From NCBI RefSeq assembly GCF_004010195.1, contig NC_057718.1, forward strand, positions 49,315,239-49,379,238: a stretch of DNA of 64,000 nucleotides, given 5' to 3'. The stretch comes from Chiloscyllium plagiosum. Lineage: Eukaryota. Positions 7,753 to 64,000 of the stretch are shown in pieces. How positions within the stretch are numbered: position 1 is the first letter of the stretch; every line of letters begins with the position of its first letter. A program made the position numbers and the translations under genes. Under the pieces are notes generated by a model. That model searched no databases. It was not told the origin of the DNA and saw only the letters and a program-made list of their open reading frames with translations.

Positions 7753-7785
7753 GAGGCACCCTACCATGGGGCATTATTTCCATAA

Positions 7786-7978
7786 GGCGAAAGTGAGTAC
7801 TGCAGGTGCTGGAGATTCGAGCCAAGAGTAGGGAAAGCACTGCCGGTCAGGCAGCATCTGAGGAGCAGGAAAATAGACATTTTGGGCAAAAGCCCTTCAG
7901 CAGGAATTCCTGATGTTGATTTTCCTGTTATTTGGATGCTTTCTGACCGGCTGTGCTTTTCCAGCACCACTCTTGGCT
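7786..7978. mobile_element. Foldback PLE-derived mini-element with HHR remnants
   Basis: Inverted arms about caggaattcctg; perfect 14-bp TSD cattatttccataa (7772-7785 / 7979-7992). Confidence 0.85.
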
Positions 7979-9241: not shown

Positions 9242-10276
9242 GTGATTGTAAACCTGTTTGGACAGTGGTTTCTAGCAATTATCTTGTCAGAGTAGATTAA
9301 GTGGTAAAAGACACAGAAGTTAAAAGATCAATTACTCTCTTCAATGTAGTTTTGCCTCGTACCTTGGCACAGATGTAAGTGCAGGGAACAAAATATCTAG
9401 GTACTTAAAGATGCTTTTGTGAAGCATAACTAATGATCCGAACTATTGTTTGTGGCAATGGATATTAATTCACTGCTGGATAGACTGTCATAAAAGATAT
9501 ACTCACGACTGCATCTTTTCATGGCTTGCTGGTATACAATTCAGCTCCTGGCATTGACATCCATGATCACTGCAGGGATGACAATCTCACAAGTTCGATA
9601 TTGAACACAGAATAGATATCCATGTACAATGAAAGATCTACTCCAAAGTCGTTAACTTGCACCTCTGTTTAATAATGCATAAAACAAGATAGTTGGAGAT
9701 CTAAACATCATGCAACTTCAGCCACATTTGATGCATCCTTTGAAAAGATTTAAAAGGCATTGACAAAAGATAGAGGAGATCGTCGTCACTAGTGAGTCAT
9801 TCTTGGGAATTTTGCAACTATATTTCAAGCCCACATTAAAGTTTGTCATGCAAGGGGAAATCTGCAGGTATCAATTTAGAATTAGAAGGAGTTCCACAGA
9901 TAGAAGAAGGTCTTTGACCAGATTGCTTGCCTCTGGTTACCTTATCTCCTGTTAGGAAGAAAAAAGTGTTTGCATCAGATCCTAAGAGTTTCCAATAAAT
10001 TGCCAAGAACAAATATGCATGACAATATTGACTTGCTTGCATTGATAACATAGCTCATGAATCAACCAACCCTATTTCTGTTGATCAGAAGTCAACCTTC
10101 AAATCCAACCAAAATTTTGTTCACAATGGCACCCTGCTGCAGGATTTTTCCTTCTTGCTCTTCTCACAACCCAACGTACCACCAACCATGTTCATGGCCT
10201 GTGATTGTAAACCTTTTTTGACAGTGGTTTCTAGCAATTATCTTGTCAGAGTAGATTAAGTGGGAAAAGATACAGA
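9242..10276 (+). repeat. 76-bp direct repeat pair (9242-9317, 10201-10276)
   Basis: gtgattgtaaacc...aaagaYacaga, 4 mismatches. Confidence 0.9.
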
Positions 10277-12350: not shown

Positions 12351-12617
12351 GAGGCATGGTGGCTCAGTGGTTAGCACTGCTGCCTCACAGCACCAGGGTT
12401 CCAGGTTCAATTCCAGCCTCAGTGTGGAGTTTGCACGTGTCTGCATGGGTGTGCCCTTGATTCCTCCCACAGTCCAAAGATGTGCAGGTCAGGTGAATTG
12501 GCCCAGCTAAATTGCCCATAGGTTAGGTGTGTTAGTCAGAGGGAAAATGGATCTGGGTCGGTGTGGACTTTTTGGGCCGAAGGGCCTGTTTCCACACTGT
12601 AGGGAATCTAATCCAAT
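12351..12617 (+). mobile_element. HE1/V-SINE-type SINE inside CR1
   Basis: ggtggctcagtggttagcactgctgcctcacag head; tail ...gggaatctaatccaatct. Confidence 0.85.
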
Positions 12618-13485
12618 CTCGAAGTTCTAAACTGGAGAAAGGCTAATTTTGACGGTAGTAGGCAAGAACTTTCAAAAGCTGACTGGGGGCAGATGTTCAC
12701 AGGTAAAGGGACTGTTGGAAAATAGGAAGCATTCAGAAATGAGATGAGAGTCCAGAGACAGTACGTTCATGTTAGGGTGAAGGCAAAGCTGCTAGGTGTA
12801 GGGAATGTTGGATGACAAGAGAAATTGAGGCTTTGGTCAAGTGTAAGAAGGAAGCATATGTTGGGTATAGACGGTAGAGATCAAGTGAATCCCTAGAAGA
12901 GTATAAAGGCAGCAGGAGTATACTTAAGAGCAAAATCAGAAGAGGAAAAAAGGGATATTAGATAGCTTTGGCAAATAGAGTTAAGGAAAATCCAAAAGGA
13001 TTCTAAAAAACAGTAAGGACAAAGGGATAACTAGGGAGAGAATAGAGTTCCTTAAAAATCAGCAAACCAGCCTATGTATGGAAATGCAGGAGATGGGGGA
13101 GATAATAAACAAATATTTTACATCAGTGTTTACTGTGGAGAAGGATATGGATGATAGAGACGTGGGAAAATAGATAGCAACATCTTGAAATATGTCCACA
13201 TTACACAGGAGGAGGTGTTGGATGTCTTAAAACTCATAAATCCCCGGGACCTGATCAGGTGTATCCTCGAACTCTGAAAGAAGCTAGTGAAGTGCTTGCT
13301 GGGCACCTTTCTGAGATATTTGTGTCATCGATAGCCACATATGAGGTGCTGGAAGACTGGAGGTTGACTAGTATGTTGCCACTATTTAAGCAAGGTGATA
13401 AGGAAAAGCTAGGAGAAAGTGAGGTCTGCAGAAACTTTATTGCTGGAACAGCACAGCAGGTCAGGCAGCATTCAGGGAACAGGAG

Positions 13486-13521
13486 ATTCGACGTTTCGGG
13501 CACAGGCCCTTCTTCAGGAAT
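13486..13521 (-). ncRNA. Minimal type I hammerhead ribozyme
   Basis: AUUC-CUGAAGA-A-GGGC(CUGU)GCCC-GAAA-C-GUC/GAAU; identical to 18333-18368. Confidence 0.8.
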
Positions 13522-13638
13522 GAGCAGAGAGTGTTCAGCAGGAGAAGATAAAAGGTAGGGAGGAGGGACTTGGAGGAGGGGAGTTGGAAATGTGATAGGT
13601 GGAAAGAGGTCAAGGTGAGGGTGATAGGTCGGAGGAGA

Positions 13639-13999
13639 CTAACTATCCGTGATCCCAGTCTGGTTCACTGTGATCCTGACCTAATTAAATGTGATCCCAG
13701 TCTGCTTTACCGTGATCCTGACCTAACTATCCGTGATCCCAGTCTGGTTCACTGTGATCCTGACCTAATTAAATGTGATCCCAGTCTGCTTCACCGTGAT
13801 CCTGACCTAACTATCCGTGATCCCAGTCTGGTTCACTGTGATCCTGACCTAATTAAATGTGATCCCAGTCTGCTTCACCGTGATCCTGACCTAACTATCC
13901 GTGATCCCAGTCTGGTTCACTGTGATCCTGACCTAATTAAATGTGATCCCAGTCTGCTTCACCGTGATCCTGACCTAACTATCCGTGATCCCAGTCTGG
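13639..13999. repeat. Minisatellite: 4.3 copies of an 84-bp unit made of four 21-bp subunits
   Basis: ctaactatccgtgatcccagt / ctggttcactgtgatcctgac / ctaattaaatgtgatcccagt / ctgcttcaccgtgatcctgac; one substitution seen. Confidence 0.97.
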
Positions 14000-14341
14000 G
14001 TCGCCTGAGATGGAAATAGAAAGGTCGAGGAAGGGGAGGGAGGAATCTGAGACTGTCCAGGTGAATTTGAGGTCGGGGTGGAAGGTGTTGGTGTAGTGGA
14101 TGAACTGTTCAACCTCCTCGTGGGAGCACGAGGTAGCGCCGATACAGTCATCAATGTAGCGTAGGAAAAGATGGGGGGTGGGGCCAGTGTAGTTGCGGAA
14201 GATGGATTGTTCCACATATCCTACGAAGAGGCAGGCATAGCTGGGGCCCATGCGGGTGCCCATGGCTACTCCTTTTGTTTGGAGAAAGTGGGAGGATTGG
14301 AAAGAAAAGTTGTTCAGGGTGAGGACCAGTTCGGCCAGTCG
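14000..14341 (-). pseudogene. PLE reverse transcriptase core fragment
   Basis: AMGTRMGPSYACLF, LRYIDDC, FHPDLKFT, LPFLDLSI motifs; no stop in the fragment. Confidence 0.93.
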
Positions 14342-14578
14342 AAGGAAAAGCTAGGAGACTATGGATTGGTGAGCCTAATATGGGTGATGGGCAAGTTGTT
14401 GAGAGAATCCTGAGGAACAGGATTTATAGGCATTTGGAAAGGCAAGGACTGAGTAGGGATAGTCAACATGGCTTTGTGCGTAGGAAATCATATCTCACGA
14501 ACTTGATTGAGTTCTTTGAAGAAGTCACGAAGAGGATTGATGAGCGCAGAGTGGTGGACATGATCTATATGGACTTCA

Positions 14579-15393
14579 TAAAACATAGATTATACAACAT
14601 TACAGCGGAGTACAGGCCCTTCAATGTTGTGCCAACCTGTGAAACAATCTAAAGCCCATCTAACCTATACTATTCCATTATCATCCATATGTTGATCCAA
14701 TGACCATTTAAATGCCCTTAATGTTGGCAAGTCCACTACTGTTGCAGGCAGGGCAGTCCACGCCCTTACTACACTCTGAGTAAAGAACCTACCTCTGACT
14801 TCTGTCCTATACCTATCACCCCTCAATTTGAAGCTATCTCCCCTCCTGCTAGCCATCACCATCTGAGGAAAAAAGCTCTCACTATCCACCCTATCTAATC
14901 CTCTGATCACCTTAAGTTGCGTCTTAACCTTTTCTCTCTAACAAAAACAGACTCGGCTCCCTTAGGCTTTCCTCATAAGACCTTCTCTCCATACCAGGCA
15001 ACATCCTGGTAAATCTCCTCTGCATCCTTTCCAGTGCTTCCACGTCCTTGCTATGATTCGGCGACCAAAACTGTGCACAATACTCCAAGTGCGGCTGCAT
15101 CAGAGTTTTATACCGCTGCAACATAATCTCATGGCTCTGAAACCTAATCCCTCTAGCAATAAAAGCTAACAAACTGTACACCTTTTTAACACCCCTATCA
15201 ACCTGTGTGGTAACTTTCAGGGATCTATGCACGTGGACACCAAGATTTCTCCGCTCATCAGAACTACCAAGAATCTTACCATAAGCCCAGTATTATGTAT
15301 CCCTGTTACTCCTTCCAAAGTGAATCACCTGACACTTTTCCGCATTAAACTCCACCTGCCACCTCTCAGCCCAGCTCTGCAGATTATCTATGT
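14579..15393 (-). mobile_element. CR1 3' fragment, antisense
   Basis: ORFs 14924-15232 (HLEYCAQFWSP) and 14665-14910. Confidence 0.9.
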
Positions 15394-16043
15394 CCAAGGT
15401 CTCTTTGTTCAGCCATGATGTGGAGAAGCTGGTGTTGGACTGGGGTGGCCAAAGTTACAAATCACACAACATCAAATTATAGTTCAACAGGTTTATTTGG
15501 AAGCACTAGCTTTCAGACTACCGCTCCTTCATCAGGTGGTTGTGGAGTAGGACCATAAGACTTTATAACAAAGAATTTATAGCAAAAGATTACAGTATCA
15601 TGCAAGTAAAATGATGCATTTAATAAACTTCAATTGTTGTCAAGTCTGGTTTGATAAATATATAAATTTACTACCATGATACTGTAATCTTTTGCTATAA
15701 ATTCTGTGTCTTACGTCCTACTCCACAACCATCTGATGAAGGAGCAGTGCTCTGAAAGCTGGTATTTCCAAATAAACCTTCTGGACTATAACCTGGTGTT
15801 GTGTGATTTTTATCTTTATTCAGCAACACTCCCCAGGAACTTACCATTGTGTAAGTATGTAAGTTCAGCCCTGATTTGCCTTTCCAAAATTTAGTATCTC
15901 ACACTTATCTAAATTAAACTCAATCTGCCACTTCTCAGCCCATTGGCCCATCTGATCAAGATCTCATTGTACTCTGAGGTAACATTCTTCGTTGTCCACT
16001 ACATCTCCAATTTTGGTGTCATCTATAAACCTACTAACCATAC
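15394..16043 (-). mobile_element. Inverted CR1 RT segment, interrupted by a foldback element
   Basis: Antisense DDTKIG...EQRDLG region. Confidence 0.75.
15414..15812. mobile_element. Foldback mini-element of a second PLE family with an HHR motif in each arm
   Basis: ~150-bp inverted arms; CTGATGA-aggagc...GAAAGCT at 15733-15760 (+) and 15504-15538 (-); 12-bp TSD tctttRttcagc (15402-15413 / 15813-15824). Confidence 0.85.
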
Positions 16044-16246: not shown

Positions 16247-17445
16247 ACAGTTATAAATGATTTGGATGTTTGGAGGTATAATAATTTAATTAGGAATAGT
16301 CAAGATAGTCTTGTGAAGGGTAGGTCGTGCCTCACAAATTTATTAAGTTCTTTGAGAAGGTGACCAAACAGGTGGATGAGGGTAAAGCAGTCAAGGTGGT
16401 ATATATGGATTTCAGTAAGGTGTTTGATAAGGTTCCCCATGGTTGGCTATTGCAGAAAATACAGAGGCATGGGATTGAGGGTGATTTAGCAGCTTAGATC
16501 ACAGCTATAGGGAGACGCTGAATAGGCTGGGGCTACTTTCCCTGGAAAGTCAGAGGCTGAGGGGTGACATCATCGAGGTTTATAAAATCATGAGGGGCGT
16601 GGATAGGGTAAATAGACAGGTCTTTTCACCGGGGTTGGGAAGGCCAAAACTAGAGGGCTTAGGTTTCAGGTGAGAGGGGAAAAATTTAAAAGGGACCTAA
16701 GGGGCAATTTTTTCACACAGAGGATTGTATGGAATGAGCTGCCTGAGGAAATGATAGAGGCTTGTGCAATTATAGCATTCAAAAGACATTTGGATGAGAA
16801 TGCGCATAGGAAAGGTTTGATGGGTTATTGGCCAAATGCTGGAATGGGACTTGATTTATTTTGGATATCTGGTCAGTGTGAATGAGTTGGACTGAAGGGT
16901 CTGTGTCTGTGTTGTACATCTCTATGACTCCATGACTGTAATTGAGTAACCTCCTAATCTGTAACTGTGTTCCCTAGTTCAGGATTGCCCACCAATGGAA
17001 ACATGTTATCATCTTCCCTGTCGAGCTCCTTCTGAATTGTATTTGCTTCCTCATTATCCCTCATTCTACTAAACATTAATGAAATAATGACTAACGTATT
17101 TAGCCATTCTTAATAAGTCAACACGCTGCTCTAGTATCTTGTATATTCTCTTAATTTTATCACCTCTCTCACATCCCTTAAACCTACTATTCAATTTAAA
17201 ACCCTCTGTCTGTCTTAGTGATATGACTCACCAGAACATTGATCCAAACCTCGTTTAAGTGGAAACCATTTCAATAATAGACCTTCCTCTTGACCCAGTA
17301 CTGGTGGCAGTGTCCCACGTCTCCTGTAAAAATCATGCTCATTTTTTTTCTGGTAATCCATAAAAAAAACACATTGACATTCTCCTTATCACTATCTTAG
17401 TCACCACCAAAGAAAATTCAGATCAATTTTTCCACATGAGTAGTC

Positions 17446-18232
17446 TTTTACAAACCAACCGACTCCCACAGCTACCTGGACTACACCTCCTCCCATCCTG
17501 CCCCCTGTAAAAACGCCATCCCATTCTCCCAATTCCTTCGTCTCCGCCGCATCTGCTCCCAGGAGGACCAGTTCAAAATACGTACAACACAGATGGCCTC
17601 CTTCTTCAAGGACCGCAATTTCCCCCCCGACGTGGTCGACGGTGCCCTCCACCGCATCTCCTCCACTTCCCGCCCCCCCGCCCTTGAGCCCCGCCCCTCC
17701 AACCGCCACCAGGACAGAACCCCACTGGTCCTCACCTACCACCCCACCAATCTCCATGTACAGCACATCATCCGCCGTCACTTCCGCCACCTCCAAACAG
17801 ACCCCAGCACCAAGAATATATTTCCCTCCCCTCCCCTATCAGCTTTCCATAGAGACCACTCCCTCCGCGACTCCCTTGTCAGATCCACACCCCCCACCGA
17901 CCCAACCACCACTCCCGGCACCTTCCCTTGCAACCGCAGGAGGTGCAACACTTGCGCCCACACCTCCCCCCTCACTTCTCTCCAAGGCCCCAAAGGAAAA
18001 TTCCATATCCGCCACAGATTCACCTGCACCTCCACCCACATCATCTACTGCATCCGCTGCAGCCGGTGTGGCCTCCTCTATATTGGGGAGACAGGCCGCC
18101 TACTAGCGGAGCGATTCAGAGAGCACCTCTGGGCCACCCGGACGAACCAACCCAACCAACCTGTGGCACAGCATTTCAACTCCCCCTCCCACTCCACCGA
18201 GGATATGCAGGTCATTGGACTCATCCACCGCC
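17446..18232 (+). pseudogene. PLE ORF remnant: RT thumb, Cys/His linker, GIY-YIG endonuclease lacking its C-terminus
   Basis: YKPTDSHSYLDY, IPFSQFLRLRRICS, CNRRRCNTCAH, IIYCIRCSRCGLLYIGETGR, RFREH. Confidence 0.93.
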
Positions 18233-18332
18233 ACCTCACCTTGACCTCTTTCCACCTATCACATTTCCAACGCCCCTCCTCCAAGTCCCTCCTCCCTACC
18301 TTTTATCTTCTCCTGCTGAACACTCTCTGCTC

Positions 18333-18368
18333 ATTCCTGAAGAAGGGCCTGTGCCCGAAACGTCGAAT
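18333..18368 (+). ncRNA. Minimal type I hammerhead ribozyme; predicted cut after C18364
   Basis: Core CUGAAGA 18337-18343, stem II GGGC/GCCC, GAAA 18357-18360, palindromic ACGU, stem I AUUC/GAAU. Confidence 0.8.
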
Positions 18369-18874
18369 CTCCTGTTCCCTGGATGCTGCCTGACCTGCTG
18401 TGCTGTTCCAGCAATAAAGTTTCAACCTTGATCTCCAGCATCTGCAGACCTCACTTTCTCCTTTTACAAATCTATACTGACTCTTTGACCAGCATGAAAC
18501 TTTCAAATATTTTGTCACCATATTCCTAATTGTACACTCTAGCAATTTCTTGACAGCAGATGTTAGACCACAATTCCTCTGTTTCTCTTTCAAACCTTTC
18601 TAATATAGCAGAGTGGCATGTACAATTTTCCAATTTTAATAAACTGTTTTCAAATCAAGAATATTTTGGAATATTGTAATTTGAGTATCTATAATGTTCT
18701 CACCTAACTCTTTCAAAAGTGTAGCACAGAAACCGATCTGATTCTTGTTATTTCTTGTCCTTCCAGGCATTAATTTCTCTATTTCTGTTTTCTTACTTAT
18801 ATTTATTTTGCTCAGTTCCAGTCCTGGTTCAAAAATATTTACTCAGAATATGGATATTCCCATGTACCCGTGTC

Positions 18875-19800
18875 CACGTTGCACATAGAAGTCTCCAAAA
18901 CCATGTTGTATATATCCTAAAGCACCAACTCCTATTCAATATCACCCATGCTCACTTTTCATTTCCACATTAAATGGGCAATCTCATATTTTGAAATCAT
19001 GCCATCTGGTCTTCTGATTCTGGTCTGTCCCCTTCTGATTCTCCCAGGAATAGAAAAAAAAAATTCTGCATTTATCCTGTCAAACACCCTAAGAATCTTG
19101 TACATTTCAATACGACCCTCATTCATTCCTCTATACTCCAGTGAGTGCAGGTCTAATCTACTCAACCTCTCCTCAAAAAACTGTCCCTCCATACCCAACA
19201 TCAACCCAGTGAACCTTCTCTACTGCCTCCAGTGCCAGTATATCTTCCCTGCTAAGGGGATCAAAATTGTTCACTATATTCTGAGTGTGGTCTCACCAGT
19301 TCCTTATATAAATTTAACAAAACCTGCCTATTTTTATCCTTCATTTTCTTTGAAGTCATGGACAACTTTCCTTCTTTATTACTTGCTGAACTTGAATGCT
19401 AGCTTTTTGTGGTATATGCAGGAGGATACTCAAGTCGCTCTGTGCTATTGCTTTCTGCAGATTTTCTCCATTTAAATAATAATCAGCTTCAATTCATCAC
19501 ATTTTCCCATGTCATACTCCATCTGCCATGTATTTTGCCCACTCATTTTCCTCTCTGTATCCCTCTCGCAAGTCTCTTGCACCACATGCCTTCCTATTTC
19601 TGTGTCCTCTGCAAACTTGGTTACAGTGCATTTACTTGCATTATCCAAGTCTTTAATGTATATGGCTGCAGCACTGATCTCTGTGGTGCTCTTTTAGTGA
19701 TAAACTGCAATCTGGAATATGCCGTCCATATGTCAACTTTTATGAATTAGCCAATCCTCTATTCATGCTAACTTATGACCTCCACACCATGGCCTCTTCT
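18875..19800 (-). mobile_element. Old CR1 3' half
   Basis: ORF 18959-19204 (FEERLSRLDLHSLEYR...IEMYKIL). Confidence 0.8.
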
Positions 19801-19955
19801 CTGAAGTGAAGTGCTGGTGCAAGCAGGATGATCCACTTGGTGCTCTTTTAGTGATAAACTGCAATCTGGAATATGCCGTCCAGATGTCAACTTTTATGAA
19901 TTAGCCAATCCTCTATTCATGCTAACCTATGACCTCCACACCATGGCCTCTTCTC
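19684..19955 (+). repeat. 118-bp local duplication (19684-19801, 19838-19955) with 36-bp spacer
   Basis: Two mismatches between copies. Confidence 0.95.
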
Positions 19956-22530: not shown

Positions 22531-22621
22531 CAATGAAGGGCTTTTGCCCGAAATGTCTATTCTCCTGTTCCTCAGATGCTGCTTGACCTGCTGTGCTTTT
22601 CCAGCACCACATGCTGCACTC
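22531..22621 (+). mobile_element. Short PLE 3'-terminal derivative starting within the HHR core
   Basis: ATGAagggcttttgcccGAAAtgtc...ccagcaccac. Confidence 0.75.
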
Positions 22622-22622
22622 T

Positions 22623-23730
22623 AGTGTCGGCACTGTCAGGGCTCAGCTCAACGCTCGTCCTTTCCATCCACTTCTCCTTTTGTTTTCATTGTTTCCTTCT
22701 ATTTTTCCAATTTTTAGTTTTTTTAAACCTACATTGGCTTGTGAAGAGAGCAGCTGTGCTACAGTGACTGAGGGCCCGGAATGGGATAGCCAGTGGTCAC
22801 TGGGCCAGGGCAGAGTGGGATGGCCAGGGATCACTGGGCCAGGGCAGAGTGGGACAGTCAGCGGTCACTGGGCCAGGGCAGAGCAAGGTGGTCAGGGGTC
22901 ACTGGGCCAGGCAGAGTGGGATGGCCAGAGGTCCGTGGGTCGGGGCAGAGTGGGACGGTCAGCGGTCACTGGGCCAGGGCAGAGTGAAATGGCCAGGGAT
23001 CACTGGGCCAGGGCAGAGTGAAATGGCCAGGGATCACTGGACCATGGCAGAGTGAAATGGCCAGGGATCACTGGGCCAGGGCAGAGTGGGATGGCCAGGG
23101 GTCACTGGGCCAGGACAGAGTGGGATGGCCAGGGGTCACTGGGCCAAGGCAGAGTGGGATGGCCAGGGTCACTGGGCCAAGGCAGTGTGGGATGGCCAGA
23201 GGTCACTTGGCCAGGGCAGAGTGAAATGGCTAGGGATCACTGGGCCAGGGCAGAGTGAGATGGCCAGGGGTCACTGGGCCACGGCAGAGTGAAATGGCCA
23301 GGGATCACTGAGCCAGGGCTGGAGCAAAGTGGCTGGTGGGCTGGGGACCTGGAGGGGTTGGTCGCTGGACTGGGGCCTGGTGCCGTTAGTCTATCACAGA
23401 CCTCAAGCTCGGCACTGTGGGGGGAGTGAGACCACGTGTGGAAAGCCCACAGCGTGGAGAGACTAAAGGTGATAGAAGGGCTGTAATGTTTAACTTTTAA
23501 CGTCATTTCTTTATCTTCAAAATTTTTACTATGAAGAATGCTAATATAAAACTTTTAGCTTTTTTCTTATTTCCCAATCTTCCTCCATACGTACTCTATT
23601 TTATTACCTAAGATTTTTATCTAAGTATATTGTATCTAAGATAGTACCGTGTATGGTGGCATTGTACGCATTTCACTGTGCTCCTGTACTTTGTATATAT
23701 AATGTGACAATAAACCTAATTCTAATTCTA
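22623..23730 (+). mobile_element. Putative non-autonomous composite retroposon: head + T tract + VNTR + LINE-like tail
   Basis: Ends tttcactgtg...gtgacAATAAAcctaattctaattctaa; head resembles 55790-55935 (-). Confidence 0.55.
22773..23320. repeat. GC-rich VNTR, about 16 x 34 bp
   Basis: Unit cactgggccagggcagagtgRRatggccagggRt. Confidence 0.95.
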
Positions 23731-23812: not shown

Positions 23813-25520
23813 AAAAAATACAAAGAACTGAGGATGCTGTAAAACTGAAACAAAAATAGAAACTGCTGGAAAAACTCAGCAGGTCTGGCAGCATCTGTTG
23901 AGAGAGTTAACATTTCAGTCTCGTGGCCCTTCTAAAGACTCTTCACAGTATCCCCAAGTGGAAAGTGAGGTGTTGTTCTTCCAGCTGGTGCTGGGCTTCT
24001 CTGGAGCACTGCAGCAAGCCTGAGACAGAGATGTTGGCCAGGGAACAGGGTGGTGTGTTGAAGTGGCAGGCAGCTGAAAGCTCAGGATCCTTTTCACGAG
24101 CAGAATGTGAGCGTTTCGTCTGTGTTTCGTCTCCCCAGTATAGAAGAAAATACCTTGTGTCCAGATTGAGCGAAGCGCAGGTAAATCACTGCTTCACCTG
24201 GAAAGTGTATCTGGGGCCTTGGATAATGAGGAGGGAGGAAGTAAAAGGCCAGTGTTACACCTTCTGCGATTGCAGGGGAAGCTGCCGTGAGAGGTCTTGA
24301 GAGTGGAGGAAGAGTGGACCACGGTGTCTCTGATGGAATGATCTGTGGGGAAGGCTGACAAAAAAGTGGGGAAGGAAATACGTGCCTGGTTAATGGCATC
24401 CTATTGGAGGTAGTAGGATTGGCATCTTATGATCTTTCGGATACGGATGCTGGTGGGATTGAAAATAAGGCCAACAGGCCCCTTTCATTGTTATGGTGGG
24501 GAAGAGAAGGAGTGACGGACGAATTGTGAGAGATGGGTCGGGCGTGGCTGAGGATATTGTTGACTACAGTGGTGCGGACTCCTCAGTTAAATAAAAAGCT
24601 GGACATTTCTGACATCATCAGAACCAATGTAATGGAGATGAAGACACTTGGAAAATGGAATACAGTCCATAGAGGAAACAGGATGTGAGGATGTATAGAT
24701 GAGGTAACTGTGGGAGTAATTGGGTTTGTCATGGATATCACTATCCAGCCAATCCCCAGAAATGGAAACACAGGTGTCAAAAAAGAAAAGGCAGGAGTCA
24801 AAGATGTGAAGGTGAGAGCAGGGTGGAAATTGGAAGCACAATTGATAAACTTTCCAATTGCAAATGAAAGAGAGAAGCTGCCGATGTCATCAATGTATCG
24901 GAGAAAGAGTTATGGAGAGAGATCTGAGTAGGATTGCAACAAAGAATATTCCACATATCCCACAAAAGACATAGGCATAGCTGAGGCCCACATGGGAGCC
25001 ATGGGTACAGCTTGGATCTGAAGAAAGTGAGAGCAGTTAAAGGGGAAGTTCTTCAAAGTGAAGGTGAACTCGATCAGCTGGAGGAGAGTGGTGGTGAATG
25101 GAGATGGTGCAGACCTTTTATCCAGGAAGAGGCAGAGAGACCCAAAACCATTCCACCGGGGGAAGGACCTGTGAAGGGATTGCACACCCATGGTGAAGAG
25201 GAGGTGGCTGGTGCCTGCGAATTGCAAATTTTTCAAACTGACATAGAGTGTCAGAAGAATCGTGGATATAAGTGAGAAGGGACTGGACAATGAGATAAAA
25301 CATCGAATTGATGGAGGAAGAGATGAGCTGTGTGGTGCATGAGCAGAGAGAAAAACAATGGGTCTGCCTGGGCAGTCCTGTTTGTGGCATTTGGGAAGAT
25401 AGTAGAAGCGCGCTGTGTGGGATTGAGGGACTACAAGCTTGGAGGCTGTAGTTGGAGGAGATCCCCAGATGAGATAGGATTAGTGACCATTGTGGACATA
25501 ATAACTGATGTTCAATGGTG
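23813..25520 (-). mobile_element. Old decayed PLE (RT, GIY-YIG, 3' terminus)
   Basis: TTTLLQLIEFTFTLKNFPF, DKPNYSHSYLIYTSSHP, CIPFSKCL remnants; HHR-like remnant near 23905-23940. Confidence 0.85.
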
Positions 25521-52701: not shown

Positions 52702-53697
52702 AACAGAAGCTTTGTTCACAATTTTCTTTTAAAATGCCTGTATCCTTTTGCTTCCAGCTGCTTTCTTTTAGTTCAGTTTCTCATTCTCTGTAATGATACC
52801 CAGATATGATGGATCGCGCAGAGAACAGCCATGCGATGCACAACCAGACACTGAACAATTTAGAACTATATCTTCTCCCTTTGTTAAAATGAAAATGTGT
52901 TATTTTAAATGAAACGCCTCCTAAAAAAACGAATGTACGGACATTGAGTCATTTCTTAGAATTTAGCTTATCCATTTTATCGAGATACAGAAATAGTTTT
53001 TGTAATGTGAGTGTTGATGATCTTGGTATTGAGATCTCTGAACTTGAGACGTAATTCTGCAATAATTAGCTTACTGGGGGAGATGATCAACTGATAGACG
53101 GTCATCACAAAATGAAACGTTTCCTCATATCGACTGTTCTCAAAATAGCTGGTCTGCTTGCTATCAAGTGTCACACATCCCACTTGATGTCGTCATTCAC
53201 CTGATAAGCCTTGTTTAGAAGCCACTGCTTGATCTATTACTCTGCTCCTGAAAGAGCTGACGCATGGCTGTGGTTATGATTTAGCAGTTTGATATAATCC
53301 CAAACTTCAAATCATTCCCTTGCACATGGTCACTTAGTGAAGTACAGTTTCGTTTTACTTTGTTTTGCTTTGTGATATTTTTCTGCTTCCATTCCTATAT
53401 TCTCACTGGATTACAGAAATGGTTTGAGAAAATTCAGCAACATGCAAAAGCTACTTTTGGTCATAATTTCAGGCAGTGTCTTTCTGGTCAGAGAGGGTAG
53501 GGTGAATTGTTATGTGCAAAAAATGGATATGAATGGATTGTTCAAACACTTTCCTCTCCAGTATTCCAGCTGTCGGATTATCATTACTGTTGAATTTTGA
53601 CAACACTATCCAAAACCAGGCTGTAGCATTATGTCAGCTAATGCTGAATTCCATAGCGTGCTAGGAAATCTGCAAACTGTCTGGATACAAATATTGA

Positions 53698-55345
53698 AGA
53701 ATGTGGAAGGTAAAAAACTTGGAGAAATAAAGAGAGATATCTTGAAAAGTGTTCTTAATACAGAGAAGGAGGTGCTGGACATCTTAAAATGCATAAAGAT
53801 GGATAAATCCCCAGGACCTGATCAAGTGTTTCTCAGAACTTTGTGCAAAGCTAGGGAAGTGATTGCTGGTCCGCTTGCTGAGGTATTTGTTTCATTGACA
53901 GTCATGGGCGAGGTGCTAGAAGACTGGAGGGTGGCTAATGTGCTGCCATAATTTAGGAAAGGTTGTAAGGAAAAGCTAGGGAACTATATATCAGTGAGCC
54001 TGACATCAGTGGTGGGCAAGTTGTCAGAGAGAATTCTGATGAACAACATCTACACATATTTGGAAAGACAAGGATTGATTAAAGATAGTAAATATGGTTT
54101 CTGCGTGGGAAAGTGTGTTTCATCAACTTGATTGAGTTTTTTGAAAAAGTGACAAAGAATAGTGATGAGGGCAGAGCAGTGGATTTTGTCTATTTGGACT
54201 TCAGCAAGATGTTAAACAAGGTTCTATTTTGTAGACTGGTTAACAAGGTTAGATCATAAGGAATCTAGGCAGAGTTAATCATTTGCATACAAAATTAGTT
54301 TGAAAGTAGGAGACAGAAGGTGATGATGGAGGGTTGTTCTTCAGACTGGAGGCCTGTGACTAGTGGAGTGCCACAAGGATCCTCTACTTTTTGACATTTA
54401 TATAAATGATTGGGATGCGAGCATAAAGGTACAGTTCGTAATTTTGCAGATGACACCAAAATTGGAGGTATAGTGGACAGTGAAGAGGGTTACCTCAGAT
54501 TACAACAGGATCTTGACCAGGTTGGCCAATGGGCTGAGAAGAAGCAGATGGAGTTTGATTCAGATAAATGCGAGGTGCTGCATTTTGGGAAAGCAAATCT
54601 TAGCAGGACTTATACACTTAATGGTAAGGTCCTACGGAGTGTTACTGAACAAAGAGACCTTGGAGTGCAGGTTCAGGTAGATAGGATAGTGAAGAAGGCA
54701 TTTGGTATGCTTTCCTTTATTGGTCAGAGTATTGAATACAGGAGTTGGGAGGTCATGTTGCGGGTGTACAAGACATTGGTTAGATCACTGTTGGAGTATT
54801 GCGTGCAATTCTGGTCTCCTTCCTATCGGAAAGATGTTGAGAAACTTGAAAGGGTTCAGAAAAGATTTACAAGGATGTTGCCGGGATTGGATGATTTGAG
54901 CTATAGGAAGAGGTTGAATAGGCTAGGCCTGTTTTCCCTGGAGCATCAGAGGCTGAGGGGTGACCTTATAGAGGTTTATAAAATCATGAGGGGCACGGAT
55001 AGGATAAATAGACAAAGTCTTTTCCCTGGGGTGGGGGAGTCCAGAACTAGAGGGCATAGGCTTAGGGTAAGAGCAGAAAGATATAAAAGAGACCTAAGGG
55101 GCAACTTTTTCACTCAGAGGGTGGTACATGTGTGGAATGAATTGCCAGAGGAAGTGGTGGAGGCTGGTACAATTGCAACATTTAAAAGGCATCTGGATGA
55201 GTATATGAATAGGAAGGGTTTGGAGGGATATGGGCCAAGTGCTGGCAGGTGGGACTAGGTTGGGTTGGGATATCTGGTCGGCATGGACGGGTTGGACCGA
55301 AGAGTATGTTTCCGTGCTGTCCAGCTCTATGACTCTATGACTCTA
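53698..55345 (+). mobile_element. CR1 LINE with a 282-aa open C-terminal ORF2 stretch
   Basis: ORF 54410-55258 (FADDTKIGG...LEYCVQFWSP); (ctatgact)n tail; a further CR1 scrap to ~55497. Confidence 0.95.
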
Positions 55346-56294: not shown

Positions 56295-56509
56295 AGTTTC
56301 CAAAAAGTGTGGTGCTGGAAAAGCACAACTGGTCAGGCAGCATCTGAGGAGCAGGAGAACCAACATTTCGAGCACAAGCTCTTCATCAGGAAAGCTAATG
56401 CCTGAAACATCGACTCTCCTGCTTCTCGGATGCTGCCTGACCAATTGTGCTTTTCCAGTTCCACATGTTTTGACTCTGATCTCCAGCATCTGCAGTCCTG
56501 ACTTCCTCC
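56295..56509. mobile_element. Foldback PLE-derived mini-element
   Basis: Inverted arms meet at the HHR (minus CTGATGAagagcttgtgctcGAAAtgtt, 56358-56392); degenerate 9-bp TSD cggattgat / tggaatgat. Confidence 0.85.
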
Positions 56510-56849
56510 TGGAATGATTTTTTTGTTGACCACCTCAAGGTTGATTTACACTCTAAGTTCACCATTCCTGCATCATGCAATGGCCAGTTTTGATATCTAA
56601 TGATGTCATCTGTTTCAAGTTGCTTCTCATACTGCCACACCAAATAGAGATGTGTCTTCTGTGAGCTGCTTGAATATTTGCTAGCCTTTGTTCTGAAACA
56701 ATGCAACAAACCATCTCCTTCCAGATTGTTACTTCAGATTGTCCAACCCCATAGCGAGCAAGTGTACCATGTCATGGGTTGTTTGCCCAGATGAAAGAGA
56801 GTTTTTGGAGCCAGTAAATCCATAATCCTTCTGCATCCATGTTACCAAT

Positions 56850-62744: not shown

Positions 62745-63030
62745 CTCCTGGCGGACTCCAGACTGTTCTCCCAGCAGCTCCTGGTGGGTCCTGGCCTGTT
62801 CTCTCAGCAGGACCTGGCGGGCCCTGGCCTTTTCACTCAGCAGGCCCTGGTGGGCCCTGGCCTGTTCTCCCAGCAGCTCCTGGTGGGCTCCGGCCTGTTC
62901 TCTCAGCAGGAACTGGCGGGCCCTGGCTTGTTCACTCTGCAGGCCCTGGTGGGCCCTGGCCTGTTCTCCTGGCAGCTCCTGGTGGGCCCTGGCCTGTTCT
63001 CTCAGCAGGTCTTGGCAGGCCCCCATCTGA
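62745..63030. repeat. VNTR, about 8 x 33 bp
   Basis: ggcctgttctcYcagcagNNcctggYgggccct. Confidence 0.93.
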
Positions 63031-63760
63031 TTTCTTTGCACATGGTGGGTTCTGGCCTGGTTTCTTGGCACGTAGTAGGCCCGGCTTAGTCTCTTGGTAT
63101 GTGGTGGGCTTCGGCCTGTTCTCTCAGCAGGTCCTGACGTGCGCCGGCCTGTTCTCGTGGCAGCTGTTGGCAGGCCCCTGCCTGATCTCTTGGTACGTGG
63201 TGAGCCCTGGCCTGGTTTCTCGGCACACGATAGACCCCAACCTTTTTCTCTCGGTATGTGGTGGTCCCCAGCTTGGTCTCTTAGCATGTGTCGGGCCCTG
63301 GTCTGGTCTCTCGGCATGTGTTGGGCCCCCGTCTGGTCTCTCGGCATGTAATGGGCTCCTGCCTCATCTCTCGGCACGTGGTGGGCCCCTGCCTGGTCTC
63401 TCGGCACACGATAGGCCCCAACCTTTTTCTCTCGGTACGTGGTGGGCCCCAGCCTGGTCTCTCAGCATGTGTCGGGCCCCAGTCTGGTCTCTCAGCACAT
63501 GTTGGACTCCCGTCTGGTCTCTCAGCATGTAATGGGCTCCTGCCTGGTTCCTCGGCATGTGGTGGGCCCCTGCCTGGTCTCTTGGCACACAATAGGCCCC
63601 ACCTTTTTCTCTCGGCACGTGGTGGGCCCCGGCCTGGTCTCTCAGCATGTGTCGGGCCCCGGTTTGGTCTCTTGGCACGTGTTGGGGCCCCGTCTGGTCT
63701 CTCGGCACGTAATGGGCTTCTGCCTGGTCTCTCGGCATATGTCAGACCAGCCTGGTCTCT
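63030..63760. repeat. VNTR of ~30-bp units with a 181-bp higher-order repeat (about 3 copies)
   Basis: gcctggtctctcggcacgtggtgggcccct; marker variant recurs at 63211, 63392, 63573. Confidence 0.93.
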
Positions 63761-64000
63761 CAAAAACTCCTGGCCAACCCCGGACTAGTTTCTTGGCATC
63801 CTGGTCTCTCTGGGGCTTCTGGCAGTGTCATGGCTCAGACTGCCCATGGATCCTGCCTGGGCATGTTCCTGAGGCACTGAGGGAGATCAGAAAGGTAGCA
63901 GTTTCAGTGGCAGTGATGGTATCTGCGGCAGTGACATCAAGAATAGACAGCAGAACGAGATAAGTGGAGGACTCATCAAAGACTGTTGAACTTTTAATTT

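Follow-up and report, generated by a model that had tools for sequence, protein, structure and literature searches.

In sections of PMC3846280 (Arkhipova et al. 2013), Penelope-like elements (PLEs) of Adineta vaga are described as having captured host genes and non-coding DNA between their terminal repeats under one target-site duplication (TSD). The same sections report unique spacers before the 3' pLTR of rotifer PLEs, as well as long inserts between core RT and thumb in Pen3 and Pen4, for which template jumps were proposed. Two-template, TSD-flanked insertions are documented in parts of the literature on L1 (PMC11702581) and R2 (PMC3414825). Internally deleted, non-autonomous elements appear in the portions considered here of PMC3414825, as R2 SIDEs, and of PMC8557442, as Chlamys PLEs such as MRC1. 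Mobile elements can also seed or carry tandem repeats, the central repeats of Helentrons being an example given in parts of PMC9659126, and some Chlamys PLE families contain internal tandem repeats (PMC8557442, in part). For a lizard PLE, internal initiation and the tail have been demonstrated; the examined sections of that paper (PMC11167929) contain no repeat addition by the element, and the word 'Penelope' does not occur in the examined sections of the tandem-repeat review PMC9659126. A search of titles and abstracts, with most subscription papers outside its reach, found no report of a minisatellite captured inside a PLE. SVA, with its VNTR, is another mobile element that has a tandem repeat.

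Here we describe a PLE copy whose interior is occupied by an 84-bp minisatellite array. It lies in a 64-kb stretch of Chiloscyllium plagiosum DNA, which we call the window. As in the A. vaga PLEs, to the extent that the cited sections describe them, unrelated sequence lies under one TSD, the break falls between core RT and thumb, and the target is an older non-LTR element. Unlike in those elements, the cargo is a non-coding higher-order minisatellite that replaces about 1.1 kb instead of adding to the element, and the array-bearing copy has lost its frame and has one pLTR only. The locus resembles the L1 and R2 template jumps, as partly surveyed here, in that pieces apparently from different templates share one TSD-flanked insertion; the joints of those jumps show microhomology or untemplated bases. 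Most of them involve one jump, whereas the array-bearing copy leaves the element and returns. The internal deletion, the retained 3' cis end and a potential to move in trans are features shared with R2 SIDEs and MRC1, in the parts of the sources that cover them. Those elements are shown to be multi-copy, whereas here depth gives only a hint of several copies, and the 5' end was truncated at random. Like Helentron-type carriers, as described in part of that literature, the locus indicates that a mobile element can disperse a minisatellite; the difference is that the repeat is foreign to the Penelope element. Non-LTR retrozymes also link tandem repeats to PLE machinery (10.64898/2026.07.22.740005, in part). 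Each retrozyme unit, however, has a type I hammerhead, and the 84-bp unit has none. Capture within a PLE is a known type of event; here the cargo is a minisatellite.

Results

One target-site duplication encloses an RT fragment, an array and a tail

The features of the insertion, in window coordinates, are as follows.

13140..14578, plus strand: older LINE, presumably CR1-type, that served as target; flanks at 13140-13416 and 14342-14578
13400..13416: left TSD copy, 17 bp; six element-side bases also match the family 3' end
13417..13634, minus strand: 3' tail, or pseudo-LTR, belonging to a young Penelope-like element; 19 nt are deleted at about 13430/13431
13486..13521, minus strand: predicted minimal type I hammerhead motif (pattern match) with core, 4-bp stem II, 4-bp stem I and a palindromic helix III stub
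13635..13638: four junction bases that continue neither tail nor array, untemplated or micro-templated
13639..13999: minisatellite array, 361 bp (4 x 84 + 25), with a 21/42/84 hierarchy
14000..14341, minus strand: 5'-truncated RT fragment of 114 open codons, with GVAMG, YIDD and FLDL, breaking just before the thumb
14342..14358: right TSD copy, an exact repeat of the left one

The direct repeat is exact over its 17 bp and no further extension is possible. A pair like this would arise by chance within 20 bases either side of two fixed ends with a probability of about 1e-7. The two LINE flanks are 73% and 77% identical to one paralogue at 53696-54203, which aligns with both of them and has the target sequence once. 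Because this paralogue is continuous with a single target sequence, the 17-bp repeat is a TSD in the older LINE. A TSD of this kind, 17 bp long and single in the paralogue, is what an endonuclease-positive Penelope-like element would leave. On the minus strand, the space between the TSD copies holds, in order, an open RT frame (342 nt), the array (361 nt) and the tail (about 220 nt), with three discontinuities within the 925 bp of the Penelope copy. This bears out the sequence-only reading, which had placed an RT piece, an array and a tail inside one perfect 17-bp TSD. The three-part structure is confirmed as genuine, young and well formed. Read on the element strand, the TSD ends in 6 nt that double as the 3' end of the family itself; this match may be what priming by a short match would leave.

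The RT fragment and its family of origin

Against residues 387-500 of P0002, a Chiloscyllium punctatum Penelope-like ORF, the RT fragment shows 91% identity. Its best named matches, among the best 120 of 792, come from bamboo, whale and zebra sharks, which by themselves would make a carpet shark or a near relative the likely host. The fragment had been described as an intact RT core with YIDD. Its frame is indeed open and the YIDD is present, but it begins 38 residues past the MDxQS motif and comprises only the C-terminal half of the core. Its Pfam RVT_1 match (E=0.00095, 19.4 bits) lies under the 29.6 cut-off. The assignment to PLE-type RTs draws on this match, the 114 codons, the identity to P0002 and the YIDD. 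The fragment stops where its relatives continue into the thumb. Whale-shark P0003 has 318 more residues (954 nt) from this point, and we estimate that roughly 1.0-1.2 kb of element sequence would be absent from the interior of the array-bearing copy.

The window contains a sister copy of the same family.

17445..18470, plus strand: sister copy with thumb, CX4CX2C linker, GIY-YIG, internal deletion, tail and a 10-bp TSD-like repeat

This copy is 5'-truncated at the thumb and lies between the two halves of its TSD-like repeat (17445-17454 and 18461-18470). Its frame is open through the GIY-YIG domain, which scores 22.7 bits against a cut-off of 22.6, and, through an internal deletion, the end of the endonuclease runs directly into the tail at about 18234. 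Relatives and the sister copy carry both the RT thumb and GIY-YIG at the place where the array stands in the array-bearing copy, as the sequence-only reading had proposed; the array also replaces the end of the ORF. A GIY-YIG with two cysteines between GIY and YIG is found in the sister copy (IIYCIRCSRCGLLYIG) and in P0003, and is deleted from the array-bearing copy. The RT piece and the sister thumb do not overlap, and they rank their relatives alike (Spearman 0.67 over the 41 of 121 proteins long enough on both). Within this set, P0002 and P0037 rank highest for the RT piece, and both figure among the three best proteins for the sister thumb. This ranking fits an origin of both pieces from one family, without being proof of it.

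According to parts of PMC8557442, Neptune and Nematis have a CX2-5CxxC linker between RT and endonuclease, and Penelope/Poseidon do not. The predicted CX4CX2C linker of the sister copy, taken alone, marks the family as Neptune/Nematis-type rather than Penelope/Poseidon, whose lack of such a linker it does not share. A 'Poseidon-type' label was also considered, and was set aside on account of this linker. A search of metagenome contigs for relatives of P0037 gave 44 pattern matches, none of which was confirmed.

The tail and its predicted hammerhead

The tail differs from that of the sister copy by 2 substitutions in 190 nt (99% identical) and, relative to it, is without 19 nt near the 3' end. 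A hammerhead in the terminal repeat is predicted at 13486-13521 by a descriptor whose features we took from parts of PMC4209133; the same parts state that minimal hammerheads alone cleave poorly. Rfam gave 0 matches in 12400-15400, the predicted motif included, and folding of the whole tail neither recovered the hammerhead nor did better than shuffles (z 0.58 and 0.47). Of the PLE 3' end with an intact hammerhead that had been read from the sequence, the predicted core and stems I and II are complete, whereas the tail itself misses the 19 nt.

The 84-bp array and its junction with the tail

The array has a period of 84, 4.3 copies and 99% identity. Its unit consists of four 21-mers, of which alternate ones are alike at 19/21 and 17/21 positions and neighbours at 11-13/21, and the sole substitution among the units is at 13708, in the first unit. 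The period, the 4 x 21 hierarchy and the single substitution were all recovered as first described. Family contigs from three DNA runs diverge from the window sequence after 13630-13634, and for this reason we conclude that bases 13635-13638 continue neither side. There is no clear microhomology at the tail/array junction.

No source of the array was found elsewhere within the window, where 16 of 16 pattern matches fall in the array itself, and the array pattern had 0 matches in each of the metagenome, viral and prokaryote contigs. A hammerhead scan of the window gave three motifs, all of them outside the array, and the 84-bp unit folds weakly (z -1.8 and -1.5). On the plus strand, the array (13639-13998) is open in one of six frames, reading as a 7-residue repeat; the chance of this is 0.26 per frame. 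We rejected a coding role, as such an open frame is expected by chance and the only match among 8,000 proteins is a platypus model at 40%. That match is likely convergence, probably by chance.

Public reads identify a multi-copy repeat family

A search with 17 words from the array and both junctions found 24 public runs. Eight of them, from four samples of organism A, hold 41-53% of the words, and no run holds more than 53%. Nine others (organisms B, C and D, plus four more of A) hold 12-18%, and five hold next to none. We aligned four of the 24 runs to 13250-13722, a segment that spans the tail, with the left TSD before it and one unit of the array after it. Among the organisms in the 12-18% group, the comparison uses B, through run X9.

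In run X2, which might be the assembled individual, a 79-nt contig matches 13606-13684 with 0 differences, 33 letters lying on the tail side and 46 in the array, and it includes bases 13635-13638. This match establishes the tail/array junction and the four odd bases in it as real DNA. For the TSD together with the 19-nt gap, no crossing contig was seen among the eight pieces listed for each of X1 and X2 (26,677 others); such a piece would be about 73 nt long, and the shortest ones listed have 71 (X1) and 74 (X2) aligned letters.

Variant letters occur in X1 at 13669 (39 contigs) and at 13689 (28 contigs). The summed depth at 13650-13665 is 35,253 in X1, 15,604 in X2 and 443 in X9, a run of organism B, whereas five of the six private joints in X1 have depths of 19-22 and the sixth has 7.8. 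Summed contig depth was not used as a copy number, but the gap between array and private joints spans three orders of magnitude. Contigs with non-window letters wrap with a period of 84, from 13719 to 13639 in X1 and X2, and from 13722 to 13640 and 13641 in X2. The array pieces among those listed differ from the window at 2-8 of about 79 bases, and a 60-nt array piece in X9 has 6 differences. The 84-bp repeat forms a multi-copy family: variant arrays of this period were seen in two individuals, and a second species has related units. From these variant arrays and the X9 piece, it follows that the 21/42/84 repeat existed in many variants before the insertion and apart from it. No RNA run was among the listed holders of the 17 words. 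RNA was represented by a sample of about 2 in 100 of one single-cell run, with 0 of 643 aligned reads on 13650-13722, too few to judge.

A model for the origin of the insertion

We consider it somewhat probable that the array was captured from the existing multi-copy minisatellite family through a template switch by the copying enzyme. The two element pieces share one orientation, and each is young, the RT piece as judged by its identity to P0002 and the tail by its few substitutions relative to the sister copy. From the observed anatomy, this youth and the family status of the cargo, we infer the following template and order of events. Target-primed synthesis would start at the element 3' end, aided by the approximately 6 bases that match the target, skip 19 nt and then copy about 200 nt of tail. 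Four bases would be added, and the enzyme would cross onto minisatellite RNA or DNA and copy it. It would rejoin the element RNA an estimated 1.0-1.2 kb further upstream and copy 342 nt of RT sequence before joining to the target. The switch could have taken place at the present insertion, during target-primed reverse transcription or while it was being completed, or in a parent copy of which the present one is a daughter, and slippage may have added units later. A switch away and back in one event demands more than a single jump.

The sequence-only reading had suggested a jump onto a foreign minisatellite and back. The anatomy fits this, and the cargo belongs to an existing multi-copy family; the template may have been RNA or DNA. 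It had further suggested that PLEs are a route for creating or dispersing minisatellites. Dispersal holds for one copy, and creation is unsupported. Under template-switch capture, the locus would be a recent record of a Penelope-like element carrying a minisatellite piece to a new site, and would show jumpy copying. The copy encodes no working protein, and its retained tail could allow mobilisation in trans.

Alternative explanations

The chimera may have formed once elsewhere, the present copy being a daughter in a small non-autonomous family that carries the minisatellite. This overlaps with template-switch capture, and we regard it as doubtful, though worth serious attention. The tail required in cis is still present in the array-bearing copy. 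The X2 contig that spans the tail/array junction has a depth of 42.9 against a single-copy depth of 6-11.5, itself estimated by multiplying that of X1 by the X2/X1 ratio, taken over 30 bins; if depth is uniform, this gives 3.7-7.1 copies. However, 16 of the 49 31-mers of this contig are pure array, and the same mean would result if the junction were single-copy and the array words had a depth of 108-119. The X2 depth of the window-type letters at 13685-13689, about 85-150, is of that same order. No second flank was seen for the junction, and no X1 junction piece is among the eight listed (26,677 others in the runs). Should the junction be multi-copy, a prospect we also find doubtful, it would point to a PLE-driven non-autonomous family with a variable repeat, and to a route scattering minisatellites in shark genomes. 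We think it unlikely that an ordinary 5'-truncated insertion came first and that a later double-strand break deleted its interior, with repair patched from a minisatellite locus. Such a patch would yield the identical final anatomy. End-joining repair typically leaves a few junction bases of no evident origin, and bases 13635-13638 would fit it. In parts of PMC3846280, microhomology-mediated deletions in PLE copies are ascribed to repair. The array-bearing copy is nevertheless very young, about 1% diverged from its sister, so there was little time for later repair. Its two structural breaks are independent of each other, and the sister carries a further one. These breaks seem too many for a divergence of about 1%, and would exceed what post-insertion decay gives, which argues for a template switch at the insertion.

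How many units arrived is a separate matter. It is quite possible, though short of probable, that only about 1.3 units were captured, with the 25-bp direct repeat at their ends, and that the tandem grew later by slippage or unequal exchange; this is compatible with template-switch capture, with a daughter copy and with repair. The X2 contig (13606 to 13684) crosses the array's opening 30-mer without a break. In the window that 30-mer is preceded once by A and thrice by C, so a graph that contained the window's tandem would be expected to break at 13668. No exact joint 84 bases back is among those listed for X1 or X2, and the upper limit of 53% of the 17 array and junction words in any run points the same way. 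A C at 13708 in at least 5% of the depth is not among the variants listed, and the odd letter of the first unit may be the family's common one. These observations hint at a lower number of identical units in other individuals or copies, and at growth of the near-perfect tandem in the window copy. Contigs simplified from a tangled repeat are a caveat to all of them, as graph cleaning can drop branches and words, and a missing entry proves nothing. A further proposal was that the array was created by the RT itself in four rounds of copying on one 84-nt template, by telomerase-like realignment or by rolling on a small RNA circle. The units differ at a single base, the outcome expected if copying was repeated and erred once. 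Tandem repeats are made by the bacterial DRT2 and DRT10 RTs, as partly documented, and tandem retrozymes have been proposed to be PLE-mobilised via a rolling circle in portions of 10.64898/2026.07.22.740005. The closeness of PLE RTs to telomerase RT, on which this proposal leaned, agrees with the sister relation given in parts of PMC8557442; it is no evidence for reiteration. Against such copying, 84-period arrays with other letters in the two individuals X1 and X2, together with related units in organism B, indicate that the period predates the insertion, and the unit has neither a hammerhead nor a strong fold. The single odd base is possibly ancestral, and near-identity is expected of any young captured or expanded array. 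The variant arrays argue against reiterative copying in general, although this does not extend to the exact window unit, and we consider such copying very improbable. If true, it would mean that PLEs write new perfect tandem arrays while inserting, and would give PLE RT chemistry an in vivo link to telomerase-type repeat addition. An assembly artefact joining unrelated repeats is the most improbable account of all, given that one exact TSD brackets the whole structure and that the tail/array junction occurs in X2 with 0 differences, although this read support covers neither the RT-side junction nor the unit count.

PLE tails in the reads and other repeats in the window

Run X9 of organism B contains an 81-nt tail piece, 13494-13574, that is identical to the window and has a depth of 1087; the same young PLE family is abundant in this second species. 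In X1, five private skips of 40-74 nt lie within PLE tails at 13450-13597, and several fold-back joints lie near 13471 and 13521. These skips and joints are a sign of recurring internal jumps or deletions in the PLE family.

Within the window, short fold-back PLE tail insertions with hammerhead-like cores are present at 7776-7974 and 56301-56510, and an old, decayed PLE with remains of RT, thumb and GIY-YIG lies on the minus strand at 23852-25464. A 34-bp minisatellite (22779-23319, 15.9 copies, 85%) starts some 170 bp past the end of an older PLE tail (22533-22611). Neighbouring GC-rich minisatellites of 33 bp and 30 bp occupy 62763-63761, with higher-order periods of 99, 90 and 181. An inverted self-match of 367 bp (79%) is found at 15451-15817. 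Two local direct duplications are recent: one of 118 bp (98%) at 19684-19801 and 19838-19955, and one of 76 bp (95%) at 9242-9317 and 10201-10276, about 1 kb apart, which could be a templated insertion.
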